Under the pieces are notes generated by a model. It was given only the letters and a program-made list of their open reading frames with translations, had not been told where the DNA came from and did no database searches. A program made the translations under genes and the position numbers. Below, one piece after another: positions 20,110 through 30,495 of a stretch of DNA of 48,307 nt. Position 1 is the first letter of the stretch; each line of letters begins with the position of its first letter. The stretch lies in NCBI RefSeq assembly GCF_003334385.1, contig NZ_QOWN01000033.1. One strand, given 5' to 3'. This stretch comes from Escherichia coli (GTDB lineage Bacteria; Pseudomonadota; Gammaproteobacteria; Enterobacterales; Enterobacteriaceae).

Positions 20110-21213
20110 TTATTCCCACTCTTGCAGGAAACGCTGACCGTACTGGTCGGCTACCAGCAGAGCGGCGTAAACCTGATCTGGCGTCGCGCCGCCAGGCATG
20201 TTGTGAATGGTTTCACCTTCTGCACATGCCGCTTCTGCCACAATTCGCATTTTCGCCGGGACATCTTCTTTAATATCCAGTTGAGCGAGAGTTATTGGCA
20301 AACCTACCGCATGGCTAAGGGCAGCTACGGTTTCGATTTCCTCCACCGGCGCATTTTCCAGAACCAGCTGCGTCAGCGTACCGAATGCCACTTTTTCACC
20401 GTGATAATAGTGATGCGCGTCCGGGATAGCGGTCAGGCCGTTATGCACTGCGTGCGCCGCAGCCAGACCACCACTTTCAAAACCAACACCGCTCAAATAG
20501 GTGTTCGCTTCAATCACGCGCTCCAGCGCCGGAGTCACTACATGCTGTTCGGCAGCAAGCATCGCTTTTTCGCCTTCTTCCAGCAGGGTGTTGTAGCACA
20601 GTTCAGCCAGTGCCAGCGCAGCCTGGGTGCACTTGCCGCCCGCCATGGTGGTCGCGCCGCTACGAGAGCAGGCACGCGCTTCAAACCAGGTTGCCAGCGC
20701 ATCGCCGATACCCGCCGCTAACAGACGTGCAGGTGCGCCAGCGACGATTTTGGTGTCGACAATGACCATATTCGGGTTATTTGGCAACAGCAGATAGCGG
20801 TCAAACTCACCCTCATCGGTGTAGATAACAGACAATGCGCTGCACGGTGCATCGGTAGAGGCGATAGTCGGTGCGATCGCTACCGGAACACCCATGAAAT
20901 GTGCCAGTGCTTTGGCAGTATCGAGGGTTTTTCCGCCACCGATACCGAGAATTGCGCCACACTGCGCAGTCTCCGCGATGCCACGCAGACGGTCGATCTC
21001 ATTTTGCGAACATTCACCGCCAAACGGCGCAATTTCTACTACCAGTCCAGCATCTTTAAAGCTTTTCTCGACAGTGGATTGAGCAAAACCTAAAACAAAT
21101 TTGTCACCCACCACTAACCAGCGTTCTGCCAGCGGCTTCAGGTATTCGCCCAGACGATTAATCACATCAGCGCCCTGGATGTATTTACCCGGTGATTGAA
21201 TAATGCGGTCCAT
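20110..21213 (-). CDS. gldA: Glycerol dehydrogenase GldA (367 aa)
   Basis: ORF contains [39 protein letters not shown]...; canonical start internal to the track ORF. Confidence 0.95.
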
Positions 21214-21223
21214 AATTGCTCCT

Positions 21224-21886
21224 TTAGAGATGAGTAGTGCCAAATGCGGCATTCCAGTCGTGTTCGAACTTCTCTATAGCTGACTCTACCGCAGGGGTGT
21301 TGAGCATTTGTTGCGCTACATCTAAGGGCAGGGTGATGGATTCACATCCTGCCAGTAAACAGTCCAGCGCCTGACGCGGCGTTTTAAAGCTGGCTGCCAG
21401 CACCATGCTTTCTGGCGCGTGCATTTCTAACAGCGTTTGCAGCTCCTGAACCGTACGAATGCCGTCTCCGCCCTGGGCATCTACGCGGTTAACATACGGA
21501 GCAACGTATTTTGCCCCTGCCAGTGCGGCTAATAACCCTTGTGCGGCGCTATATACAGCAGTGCCAAGTGTAGTAATACCCTCTTTTTTCAGTATTTTAA
21601 TTGCTGCCAGACCTTCGGAAGTCACCGGGATTTTCACCACAATACCCGGAATAGCGTCGCGCAGGCGCTTCGCTTCTTCCACCATCCCCTGCGCGTCGCG
21701 GCTCATGGTCTGAGCAAACAGAATGCCCTCATCACCAATCGCTTTTTGCAGACGCGGCAGCACTTCCCATATGGACTCCTTGCTGGCAGCGATAATGCTC
21801 GGGTTAGTTGTCACCCCGGCAATGGGGAATATGCGTGCCAGACGTTCGACTTCTGCGACGTTAGCGGTGTCCAGATACAGTTCCAT
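21224..21886 (-). CDS. fsaB: Fructose-6-phosphate aldolase 2 (220 aa)
   Basis: Full-length [40 protein letters not shown]..., transaldolase-like fold. Confidence 0.95.
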
Positions 21887-21897
21887 GATGTTTCCTT

Positions 21898-28470: not shown

Positions 28471-29314
28471 CGTTGTGGAAACGCGCCGCGATGATGTGGC
28501 GCGCATTTTCAACATTCAGCGTTATTCACTGAATGACGGCGAGGGCATTCGTACGGTGGTCTTTTTTAAAGGCTGTCCGCATCTTTGCCCGTGGTGTGCT
28601 AATCCGGAGTCGATCTCCGGCAAAATCCAGACGGTACGCAGAGAGGCGAAATGTCTGCACTGTGCGAAATGTTTGCGTGATGCGGATGAATGCCCCTCCG
28701 GGGCGTTTGAACGGATTGGTCGCGATATCAGCCTTGACGCTCTGGAACGGGAAGTGATGAAAGATGACATTTTCTTTCGCACGTCCGGCGGCGGCGTCAC
28801 GCTTTCTGGCGGCGAAGTGTTAATGCAGGCGGAGTTTGCTACCCGTTTTTTACAGCGACTGCGGCTGTGGGGTGTGTCATGCGCCATTGAAACTGCCGGA
28901 GACGCACCAGCCAGCAAGCTATTACCGCTGGCGAAATTGTGCGATGAAGTGTTGTTCGATTTAAAAATTATGGACGCGACTCAGGCGCGGGATGTGGTGA
29001 AGATGAACCTGCCACGCGTGCTGGAGAATCTGCGTTTGCTGGTGAGTGAGGGCGTCAACGTGATCCCGCGTTTACCGCTGATCCCTGGTTTCACGCTCAG
29101 CCGGGAGAATATGCAGCAGGCGCTGGATGTACTGATCCCGCTGAATATCAGGCAGATCCATCTGTTACCGTTTCATCAGTACGGCGAACCGAAATACCGC
29201 CTGCTGGGGAAAACATGGTCGATGAAAGAGGTGCCTGCGCCGTCGTCAGCTGATGTGGCAACGATGCGCGAAATGGCAGAACGGGCCGGACTTCAGGTTA
29301 CCGTGGGAGGTTAA
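28436..29314 (+). CDS. pflC: Glycyl-radical enzyme activating enzyme PflC (radical SAM, 292 aa)
   Basis: ORF contains MTSSAGQRISCNVVETRRDD..., radical SAM motif CPHLCPWC and an extra Cys cluster CLHCAKCLRDADEC; overlaps the pflD 3' end by 35 bp. Confidence 0.93.
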   Translation: MTSSAGQRISCNVVETRRDDVARIFNIQRYSLNDGEGIRTVVFFKGCPHLCPWCANPESISGKIQTVRREAKCLHCAKCLRDADECPSGAFERIGRDISLDALEREVMKDDIFFRTSGGGVTLSGGEVLMQAEFATRFLQRLRLWGVSCAIETAGDAPASKLLPLAKLCDEVLFDLKIMDATQARDVVKMNLPRVLENLRLLVSEGVNVIPRLPLIPGFTLSRENMQQALDVLIPLNIRQIHLLPFHQYGEPKYRLLGKTWSMKEVPAPSSADVATMREMAERAGLQVTVGG

Positions 29315-29315
29315 A

Positions 29316-29657
29316 ATGGCATACCTGGTGGCAGTAACCGCCTGCGTAAGCGGCGTGGCGCATACTTATATGGCGGCGGAACGGCTGGAAAAGTTGTGCC
29401 TGTTAGAGAAGTGGGGAGTCAGCATTGAAACTCAGGGCGCGCTGGGAACGGAGAATCGTTTAGCGGATGAGGATATCCGCCGGGCGGATGTTGCTCTGTT
29501 GATTACGGATATCGAGCTTGCCGGTGCCGAGCGATTTGAACATTGCCGCTATGTGCAATGCAGCATCTACGCATTCCTGCGTGAGCCGCAGCGGGTAATG
29601 AGCGCGGTGCGCAAAGTGCTTTCTGCGCCGCAGCAAACCCATCTTATTCTGGAGTAG
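29316..29657 (+). CDS. frwD: Fructose-like PTS EIIB component FrwD (113 aa)
   Basis: ORF contains MAYLVAVTACVSGVAHTYMAAERLEKL...; start 1 bp after the pflC stop. Confidence 0.93.
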   Translation: MAYLVAVTACVSGVAHTYMAAERLEKLCLLEKWGVSIETQGALGTENRLADEDIRRADVALLITDIELAGAERFEHCRYVQCSIYAFLREPQRVMSAVRKVLSAPQQTHLILE

Positions 29658-30495
29658 TCGGTTTTTCTGTCAGTTGGCTGTGGTACTGCCGGCGATATTC
29701 CGACGGCGAGCGTTCGGTGTTTTTACGAAACAGACGGCAGAAGTAGTTGCTGTCGACAAAGCCGCAGGCGTGCGCCACTTCTTTTACCTTCAGGTCATAG
29801 CCTTTCAATAACGTCTTAGCGTGCTCCAGTCGCGTGTGATTCAGGTATTCGTTAAAACCAATGGCCCCCGTTTTTTGAAACAGGTGCGAGAGGTAATTTG
29901 GCGAAATATAAAACGCCTGTGCAACAGATTCGCGGGTAAGCGCGGAGGCATAGCGTTCGTCGATATAATCGCGAATAGCTTCAAATAGTGCCTGGCTGCG
30001 TGAGGCGGTCTGGATTTGGCTGCCAAGCAAATCGCGGCAGTGGCTAAGCAGGCTGGCGACGATAAGCCTTGCCGTTTGCTGCTCCTGCGGCTGCATTTGC
30101 ATTTCATTGAGCGTTTGTAGCAGAAAAGAACCTATGCGTGGGCCGCGTCGGGCGACGTGTTGCTTCGCCAGATTTTGATATTGTTTGCCATCCCATTGCA
30201 CGACGCTGAAGCCGAGTTGCTGTTTGCCAAACAGCACGCTAAAGGTAGTAGCGGGGGCTTGCCATTGTGGAAAATTCCAGCCACCAGCAGGAACGTACAG
30301 CACATCGCCGGGAACTAACGTTGCTCCAGCGCCGGTATCAACAAACTCACCTTCCAGCACAATTTCCAGCCGTGGAAAATCGACCTGATACGCAAGATCG
30401 GGCACCGGGCCGTTACTGCTGGCAAAGTAAATCTGGCGCAGGGACAGCGGGCCGTTGATCAGGCGGGAGAGCAGATAGCTGACGTCGTGATACAT
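29644..30495 (-). CDS. yijO: AraC/XylS-family transcriptional regulator YijO (283 aa)
   Basis: Full-length ORF MYHDVSYLLSRLINGPLSLRQIYF... with C-terminal AraC-type HTH (...YLSHLFQKTGAIGFNEYLNHTRLEHAKTLL...). Confidence 0.92.
   Translation of the reverse strand: MYHDVSYLLSRLINGPLSLRQIYFASSNGPVPDLAYQVDFPRLEIVLEGEFVDTGAGATLVPGDVLYVPAGGWNFPQWQAPATTFSVLFGKQQLGFSVVQWDGKQYQNLAKQHVARRGPRIGSFLLQTLNEMQMQPQEQQTARLIVASLLSHCRDLLGSQIQTASRSQALFEAIRDYIDERYASALTRESVAQAFYISPNYLSHLFQKTGAIGFNEYLNHTRLEHAKTLLKGYDLKVKEVAHACGFVDSNYFCRLFRKNTERSPSEYRRQYHSQLTEKPTTPE

Follow-up and report, generated by a model that had tools for sequence, protein, structure and literature searches.

An Escherichia coli glycyl radical enzyme and phosphotransferase locus with a probable role in anaerobic use of 1,5-anhydromannitol

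Gene content and conservation of the locus

We analysed a stretch of Escherichia coli DNA of 48,307 nucleotides (hereafter the window), in which positions 20110-30495 carry the ptsA-fsaB-gldA genes on one strand, the divergent frwC-frwB-pflD-pflC-frwD genes on the other and the adjacent regulator gene yijO. These nine genes encode a sugar phosphotransferase system (PTS), a glycyl radical enzyme (GRE) with its radical S-adenosylmethionine (SAM) activase, an aldolase, a dehydrogenase and an AraC-family protein. We consider it highly probable that the locus enables E. coli to use 1,5-anhydro-D-mannitol anaerobically, as the branch of 'radical-mediated glycolysis' (described in 2024) that runs through PflD.

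On the minus strand, ptsA (21898-24399, 833 aa) encodes the multiphosphoryl transfer protein HPr-EI-EIIA(Fru), where EI and EII denote the PTS enzymes I and II. It is followed by fsaB (21224-21886, 220 aa) for fructose-6-phosphate aldolase 2, with the Schiff-base lysine in a VVKIP motif, and by gldA (20110-21213, 367 aa) for an NAD-dependent 1,2-propanediol/glycerol dehydrogenase. The three genes form one operon, of which gldA is the last gene; fsaB and gldA are considered by the same authors to be anaerobically activated genes (PMC6643234).

The plus strand carries frwC (24708-25787, 359 aa), which encodes a fructose-family PTS EIIC permease, frwB (25802-26122, 106 aa) for an EIIB protein, pflD (26173-28470, 765 aa) for a GRE of the dehydratase/eliminase type, pflC (28436-29314, 292 aa) for the radical-SAM activase of PflD, and frwD (29316-29657, 113 aa) for a second EIIB protein. 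The AraC/XylS-family regulator gene yijO (29644-30495, minus strand, 283 aa) is convergent to frwD, and the 3' ends of the two genes overlap by 14 bp (29644-29657).

A previous sequence-only reading of the window had called the same nine genes and the convergent yijO-frwD pair. The nine long open reading frames (ORFs) fall at exactly the positions it gave and coincide with the RefSeq coding sequences of a 100% identical E. coli chromosome, so that ORFs, RefSeq and family models all confirm these calls. For eight of the nine proteins the score lies above the curated threshold of an NCBIfam equivalog model, and FsaB also passes a subfamily model. The scores are 752.6 bits for GldA (equivalog NF047954, cut-off 700), 354.6 and 383.4 for FsaB (TIGR00875 and NF009296), 720.4 for FrwC (equivalog NF007787), 210.4 for FrwB (NF007783), 224.1 for FrwD (NF007747), and 627 and 262 for PflC (NF007483 and TIGR02494, the latter with a cut-off of 174). 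PtsA passes the EI equivalog-domain model TIGR01417 only (481 versus a cut-off of 341.7).

Over its 10,386 bp, the locus matches E. coli strain 2018-18.25PC at 100% identity. In K-12 MG1655 (b3945-b3954) the annotated genes, their order and their orientation are all as in the window and nothing of substance differs, the window carrying a natural allele. All 5426 complete E. coli genomes contain a match to the locus, with coverage of 80% or more in 5394. For the other 32 genomes, less than 80% of the locus is found in one piece, which deletions, insertion sequence (IS) elements or rearrangements could account for. The locus is real, ordinary core-genome coding sequence, and the system that it encodes is already explained and not new.

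The PTS relay

The Pfam architecture of PtsA comprises PTS-HPr (residues 7-84), PEP-utilisers_N/PEP-utilizers/PEP-utilizers_C (123-653) and PTS_EIIA_2 (690-829). Phosphorylatable histidines are found in each part, namely His16 in GVHARP (HPr), His301 in GGTTSHT (EI) and His750 in AIPHS (EIIA-Fru). The EIIB residue Cys10 is kept in both FrwB and FrwD within the motif VTAC10xSGVAHTYMAAE (in FrwB, VTACPSGVAHTYMAAE), and the two proteins are 44% identical.

On paper, the relay is complete with HPr, EI, EIIA, EIIB and EIIC. The sequence-only reading had described it as such, and this inventory of domains and active-site residues bears it out. The NCBI annotation pipeline PGAP names ptsA 'ptsP'.

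Enzyme class of PflD and PflC

PflD is 100% identical over 765 residues to PDB entry 8YJO, deposited as 'Probable dehydratase PflD'. The entries 8ID7 and 8YJN for its E. coli paralogue YbiW were also deposited as 'probable dehydratase'. When PflD is compared with solved structures, a close homologue (8ID0, deposited as 'formate C-acetyltransferase') scores 1058 bits, followed by glycerol dehydratase (1R8W, 654 bits); propanediol dehydratase (5I2A) scores 600 bits and the true pyruvate formate-lyase (PFL) structure 1H16 scores 117.5 bits over part of the chain only. The family models give 1356 bits on TIGR01774 (PFL2-3, of the PFL2/glycerol-dehydratase subfamily, cut-off 678) and 121.9 bits on the PFL equivalog TIGR01255 (cut-off 994.2).

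The hallmark of PFL is an adjacent Cys-Cys pair, C418-C419 of PflB. No CC dipeptide occurs anywhere in PflD, and Cys419 is the only cysteine of its active-site loop. This loop (G418-C419-V420-E421) aligns with the GCVEP loop of 1R8W, 5I2A and 9RCO, with a single Cys and a Glu at +2. The glycyl motif reads VVRVAG741YSAFF, and the Gly_radical domain (PF01228) is found on the orthologues.

With no Cys-Cys pair, a GCVE loop, a score far below the PFL cut-off and dehydratases as its nearest mechanistically studied kin, PflD is best classed as a dehydratase/eliminase-type GRE and not as a pyruvate formate-lyase. The label 'PFL-like' given by the sequence-only reading is acceptable as a description of the fold and does not hold for the enzyme. 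PflD and PflC share with PflB and PflA the fold family (PFL-like and Gly_radical Pfam domains), the C-terminal glycyl radical and activation by a radical-SAM enzyme; given the differences described above, the CoA and formate chemistry of PflB is not expected for PflD.

PflC carries the radical-SAM motif CX3CX2C (C47-X3-C51-X2-C54). The start of pflC lies within pflD, with an overlap of 35 bp (28436-28470), which suggests translational coupling. Residues 1 to about 23 of PflC have no counterpart in the YbiW activase YbiY (the alignment begins at PflC residue 24). This N-terminus is conserved in orthologues, with tblastn matches beginning inside pflD at all loci.

RefSeq and PGAP still label PflD as 'formate C-acetyltransferase' and PflC as its activating enzyme, as do the NCBIfam models NF007437 and NF007483. 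These names are outdated in view of 8YJO and the 2024 paper discussed below. Together with the name 'ptsP' for ptsA, such outdated names lead readers who start from sequence to rediscover the locus as a 'mystery'.

Conservation of the module across species

We scanned one genome per species and found 80 loci with PflD orthologues (73-99% identity) in Enterobacterales, Orbaceae (Gilliamella, Zophobihabitans), Pasteurellaceae (Necropsobacter) and Vibrio. Genes were counted by tblastn with the window proteins over the 65 species loci flanked on each side by 8 kb or more. A yijO-like gene is found at all 65, pflC at 63, ptsA, frwB and frwD at 60 each, frwC at 59, fsa at 56 and gldA at 36.

Orbaceae, Pasteurellaceae and Vibrio have the genes in a different order, yet the gene set persists, including the second EIIB gene. 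For example, frwD is kept in Gilliamella, Necropsobacter and Zophobihabitans even though it has been relocated. In Edwardsiella tarda the module lies in a different chromosomal neighbourhood and is without gldA.

The persistence of the gene set despite rearrangement is strong evidence that the module is one functional unit, with YijO as its putative dedicated regulator, and gldA appears to be an accessory member. The sequence-only reading had proposed comparing the genomic context of PflD orthologues; run here, this comparison finds PTS, fsa and yijO linked to pflD in most of the 65 loci.

Conserved architecture of the ptsA-frwC spacer

As a footprint of regulatory sites, we aligned the ptsA-frwC spacers of 69 loci (61 non-redundant sequences). 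The 308-bp spacer contains sharply conserved blocks, including two 37-nt arms that are inverted relative to each other. Arm A (24458-24494, minus strand) points toward ptsA and carries two direct GACAAAT half-sites 20 bp apart; arm D (24594-24630, plus strand) points toward frwC. The arm consensus is TTACAnnnaTCCAGTaanTGgCantTTTgTCnnnTg, and a pair of direct half-sites spaced by about 20 bp is present in each arm.

The two arms share 26 of 49 positions, a level reached by 1 of 5000 shuffles, and the exact GACAAAT-N13-GACAAAT pair occurs a single time in the window. A position weight matrix (PWM) of the arms detects just two sites over the window, arm D (53.5) and arm A (50.2). The next best site scores -11.9 and the background has a mean of -94 (standard deviation 18). 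At 12 loci outside its training, the matrix finds matches immediately upstream of pflD (Kluyvera, Edwardsiella piscicida) or in the Vibrio ptsA-frwC spacer (four species), with one additional match upstream of an accessory gene. A third such site is found ahead of the relocated frwD in Necropsobacter and ahead of a PhyH-like dioxygenase gene in Yersinia; in one Vibrio, too, the PhyH-like gene has an operator-like site upstream. We regard arm A and arm D as candidate YijO operators, the latter for the frwCB-pflDC-frwD operon.

Between the arms lie two dyads resembling CRP/FNR-family sites. Dyad B (24509-24524) reads TGCGA-N6-TCACA, with one mismatch to the CRP consensus, and is centred 22.5 bp from arm A. 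Dyad C (24564-24579) reads TATGA-N6-TCGCA (consensus TTTGA-N6-TCGCA), is centred 22.5 bp from arm D and has an FNR-like left half (TTGA). Their half-sites are conserved and their spacers variable, TGnGA-N6-TCnCA being found for dyad B in 49 of the 61 sequences and TGA-N6-TCnCA for dyad C in 51. Dyad B is a perfect TGTGA-N6-TCACA in Gilliamella, Zophobihabitans and Necropsobacter.

Matches to the CRP consensus are not enriched across the window (15 versus 18.5 expected). The weight of the CRP-like sites lies only in their clustering, with three in the 308-bp spacer, and in how they are conserved between species. Matches to the FNR consensus are enriched window-wide (42 versus 21), with none in the ptsA-frwC spacer at two mismatches or fewer. 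The spacer dyads may be of the CRP type or of the FNR type, and we keep both labels.

A -10-like hexamer, TATTGT (24651-24656, plus strand), forms another conserved block and is part of the predicted frwC promoter. Used as the -10 element, it would place dyad C around -91.5 and have arm D span roughly -69 to -33, with a frwC transcription start predicted near 24663. A simple scan for sigma-70 promoters and terminators over 19700-30900 had no hits between genes and gave a lower number of promoter-like sites than shuffled sequence, and is uninformative as such. The lack of a consensus sigma-70 promoter at frwC is expected of an activator-dependent promoter.

At rhaBAD, RhaS binds at -32 to -81 and CRP at -92.5. 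In rhaBAD and araBAD, an AraC-family activator occupies two direct repeats next to the -35 element, with CRP just upstream. Each predicted arm of the ptsA-frwC spacer likewise consists of two direct half-sites about 20 bp apart that reach the -35 region, with a CRP-like dyad one to two turns upstream. Unlike at rhaBAD and araBAD, the arrangement is predicted and mirrored for two divergent operons, the dyad on the frwC side has an FNR-like TTGA half-site, and yijO, the regulator gene, lies at the distal end of the operon and converges on it.

YijO as a candidate regulator

YijO has a helix-turn-helix region at residues 179-270, matched by HTH_18 (192-270, E = 4.5e-21) and HTH_AraC (233-269); its N-terminal domain has no significant match to a Pfam family. 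The protein is listed as a transcription factor of unknown function (PMC9308461). The candidate operator arms, together with a yijO-like gene at each of the 65 species loci, suggest that YijO is the pathway-specific regulator.

In the most likely scheme, YijO would activate both divergent operons from the two inverted 37-nt operators, with the CRP/FNR-type sites just upstream of each. We found no coverage of the regulation of the anhydro-sugar pathway in the accessible literature. The conserved operator and CRP/FNR architecture yields a model of YijO action that lends itself directly to testing, YijO being among the E. coli transcription factors that still lack a function.

A published list of convergent excludons includes frwD-yijO (PMC12288877). 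In view of this listing and the 3' overlap of the two genes, antisense interference between the frw operon and its presumed regulator gene is possible.

Proposed pathway for 1,5-anhydromannitol

The substrate of PflD was published by Ma et al. (JACS 2024;146:26187, doi 10.1021/jacs.4c07718). As summarised in a review (PMC12441222), E. coli PflD converts 1,5-anhydromannitol-6-phosphate and YbiW converts 1,5-anhydroglucitol-6-phosphate, both to 1-deoxyfructose-6-phosphate. Section 5.1 of this review states that YbiW and PflD enable anaerobic growth on 1,5-anhydroglucitol and 1,5-anhydromannitol, with a strict anaerobic requirement. The same review describes gut bacteria that break down the two compounds anaerobically, a PTS first making the 6-phosphate of both (PMC12441222). 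A full-text literature search for follow-up work gave citations only and no new data.

FsaA and FsaB reportedly split the product to glyceraldehyde-3-phosphate and hydroxyacetone, and GldA is said to reduce hydroxyacetone to 1,2-propanediol. Accordance with known specificities is found for both enzymes. Fructose-6-phosphate aldolase (FSA) accepts hydroxyacetone as donor, its physiological role still being called 'enigmatic' in 2020 (PMC7767278), and the family model of GldA (NF047954) is named 1,2-propanediol/glycerol dehydrogenase.

In the pathway that we propose, phosphoenolpyruvate (PEP) would phosphorylate PtsA, the phosphoryl group passing from His301 of EI to His16 of HPr and His750 of EIIA. 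From PtsA it would be handed to Cys10 of FrwB and/or FrwD, and FrwC would import the anhydro-sugar as the 6-phosphate. FrwCBD/PtsA would be a PTS specific for 1,5-anhydromannitol, an assignment based on gene linkage; the review speaks of 'a PTS' that forms the 6-phosphate (PMC12441222). D-mannitol is C2-symmetric, and 1,5-anhydromannitol can be read as the 2-deoxy analogue of fructopyranose. Its '6-phosphate' would then correspond to the 1-phosphate made by a fructose-family PTS. The 6-position being equivalent to the C1 target of such systems fits the 'fructose-like' EII proteins of the locus.

PflC, judging from family knowledge and motifs, would activate PflD by creating the radical on Gly741. 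After the model of GRE dehydratases, the Cys419 thiyl radical would take a hydrogen, Glu421 would act as base and the ring C1-O5 ether bond would be eliminated to give open-chain 1-deoxy-D-fructose-6-phosphate. Substrate and product have one formula, which makes the overall reaction an isomerisation. FsaB would carry out a retro-aldol cleavage to glyceraldehyde-3-phosphate, which enters glycolysis, and hydroxyacetone, and GldA would use NADH to reduce hydroxyacetone to 1,2-propanediol, leaving the redox state balanced; for these two steps we draw on what the 2024 work is reported to show and on enzyme specificity.

The closest mechanistically studied relatives of PflD are the B12-independent glycerol dehydratase of Clostridium butyricum (1R8W) and propanediol dehydratase (5I2A), with which it shares the aligned GCVE cysteine loop. 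What they have in common is a radical reaction that eliminates an oxygen substituent in the beta position to a carbon bearing a hydroxyl group. The substrate of PflD differs in being a cyclic sugar-phosphate ether; to judge from the formulae, the leaving group would be the ring oxygen and the reaction a ring-opening isomerisation with no loss of water.

A second E. coli cluster, ybiV-ybiW-ybiY/fsaA, repeats the design of a GRE, a radical-SAM activase and an FSA. PflD and YbiW are 37% identical, PflC and YbiY 36% and FsaB and FsaA 70%, and fsaA adjoins ybiW-ybiY in K-12. The G-C-[VI]-E loop and the RVAGYSAFF motif are shared by the two GREs. The product of the ybiW cluster is the same as that of PflD according to the review summary (PMC12441222), and its substrate is the C2 epimer of the PflD substrate. 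The ybiW cluster differs in having no dedicated PTS, no gldA and no AraC-family regulator, and carries the sugar phosphatase gene ybiV instead. The PWM scan found no operator-like arms near ybiW-fsaA (best score -11.7).

The sequence-only reading had held that the substrate of the module was not established, a statement that it made dependent on the literature offering no defined substrate for PflD. This is outdated, as such a substrate was published in 2024 (summarised in PMC12441222). Its pathway logic stands as far as PTS import and phosphorylation, glycyl radical chemistry, FSA-type aldol cleavage and reduction by GldA are concerned. The products that it predicted, dihydroxyacetone and glycerol, are one oxygen off: 1-deoxyfructose-6-phosphate gives hydroxyacetone and glyceraldehyde-3-phosphate, and GldA would then form 1,2-propanediol. 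The substrate question that it raised was already answered, and there is little new in the finding as it was stated.

Alternative explanations

Several points weigh against the assignment of the locus to 1,5-anhydromannitol. It draws on the summary in one review and on the names of PDB entries. The link of FrwCBD/PtsA to this compound comes from gene neighbourhood, and another PTS is conceivable as the carrier. No published target of YijO was found in the literature searched. The gldA gene is adjacent in only 36 of the 65 loci and fsa in 56. Kluyvera and relatives (loci L038, L039, L040, L047 and L056 of our scan) and Edwardsiella piscicida (L083) keep pflD-pflC and the AraC-family gene with no PTS nearby; these minimal clusters have no PTS, fsa or gldA within 10 kb. 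Finally, 1,5-anhydromannitol is called a 'non-physiological polyol' in mammals (PMC12441222), which leaves it uncertain where the compound comes from in nature and what the main gut substrate truly is.

This last point leads to the possibility that the chemistry is right and 1,5-anhydromannitol is a surrogate. The real substrate would be another 1,5-anhydro- or deoxy-hexitol or a ketose derivative, for example a derivative of the 1,5-anhydrofructose that alpha-1,4-glucan lyases release from glycogen or starch. Bacteria do reduce 1,5-anhydrofructose to 1,5-anhydromannitol, and the latter is non-physiological in mammals (PMC12441222). A wider substrate set is also hinted at by Vibrio clusters with an extra RmlD-like reductase/epimerase and a sugar phosphatase, and by the PhyH dioxygenase of other genera. 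However, the activity and growth reported in the review's summary are for 1,5-anhydromannitol (PMC12441222). PDB structures, moreover, exist for PflD (8YJO) and YbiW. These structures reportedly include substrate complexes. We regard the surrogate explanation as improbable.

We give still less credence to the view that ptsA-fsaB-gldA is primarily a dihydroxyacetone (DHA) and glycerol module, interconverting DHA plus glyceraldehyde-3-phosphate with fructose-6-phosphate and DHA with glycerol, and is an accidental neighbour of the frw-pfl operon. FsaB and GldA do act on DHA, their deletion slows growth on DHA, and overexpression of fsaB-gldA from a kan promoter doubles the growth rate on it (PMC6643234). 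Nonetheless, DHA induces neither fsaB nor gldA, the latter being down-regulated 2.5-fold (PMC6643234), and wild-type FSA does not support cleavage of fructose-6-phosphate in vivo (PMC7767278). In addition, fsa is linked to pflD in 56 of the 65 species loci, even after rearrangement of the gene order, and a single regulon is favoured by the conserved operator-like arms that the two divergent promoters share.

The old annotation, in which PflD is a second pyruvate/2-ketoacid formate-lyase with PflC as its activase and Frw/PtsA is an anaerobic fructose PTS, the whole serving as a back-up for mixed-acid fermentation of fructose, is hardly tenable: it has in its favour the RefSeq and NCBIfam names of PflD and PflC, the matches of FrwC, FrwB and FrwD to fructose-family EII models and the placing of PtsA in a putative PTS for anaerobic fructose catabolism (PMC6643234), and against it the score of PflD on TIGR01255, its 117 bits to PflB structures versus 654 to glycerol dehydratase, the GCVE eliminase loop in place of a Cys-Cys pair, the name dehydratase chosen by the PDB depositors and the different substrate given in the review's summary (PMC12441222). 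Anaerobic use of 1,5-anhydromannitol through PflD remains the reading that we prefer.

A possible wider YijO regulon

In 14 loci (Kluyvera, Klebsiella/Raoultella-like, Yersinia and Vibrio), the yijO-like gene is adjoined by a conserved gene for a 255-aa PhyH-family Fe(II)/2-oxoglutarate dioxygenase. These are L051 (14498-15265, minus strand), L038, L039, L047, L056, L049, L050, L058, L060, L052, L061 and L084 to L086. Most of them lack an adjacent fsaB-gldA; in the three Vibrio loci there is a divergent fsa-like gene (40%). The PhyH-like gene is absent from the window and from E. coli. The protein has only distant relatives among solved structures (best E = 3.7e-07), and our literature search found no paper tying a dioxygenase to the catabolism of anhydroglucitol.

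As a speculative extension, which we consider unlikely though worth stating, the E. coli locus could be the anaerobic core of a wider, undescribed YijO regulon. Its mirrored operators with their CRP/FNR-type sites would form a doubled rhaBAD-like design, and the regulon would include the PhyH dioxygenase in Klebsiella, Yersinia, Kluyvera and Vibrio. This enzyme might hydroxylate C1 of a 1,5-anhydrohexitol, or of its phosphate, to give an ordinary hexose or hexose phosphate and would thereby be the O2-dependent counterpart of PflD, itself sensitive to oxygen.

The PhyH-type dioxygenase of the related clusters is a lead toward aerobic breakdown of 1,5-anhydrohexitols. Such an enzyme has been named as a need for a probiotic that lowers 1,5-anhydroglucitol in type Ib glycogen storage disease (GSD-Ib) and G6PC3 deficiency (PMC12441222).

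Additional genes in related loci

In Vibrio harveyi (L087), a gene for an RmlD-like NAD(P) reductase/epimerase (13126-14001, plus strand) is inserted between pflC and the divergent (40%) fsa-like gene, and a HAD sugar phosphatase gene (17611-18285, plus strand) is added after gldA.

Phytobacter, Pluralibacter and a Citrobacter encode a third GRE directly downstream of gldA, a PFL2-3 subfamily member that is 35% identical to PflD and matched by no equivalog model. An activase and a DeoR-family regulator accompany it (L031, 385-2847 and 2969-3739, both on the minus strand; also L022 and L080). We considered whether this GRE is YbiW and rejected it, there being no match above 50%. Two distant GREs, P0122 (47%) and P0124 (43%), were dropped as PflD orthologues because their contexts are unrelated or truncated. 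A search of 90% clusters returned near-identical enterobacterial proteins only.

Four plasmid places were matched overall. Among them is a gldA copy on a 59.6-kb E. coli plasmid (NZ_CP148324.1, 13958-15094), which is 87.6% identical to the chromosomal gene.

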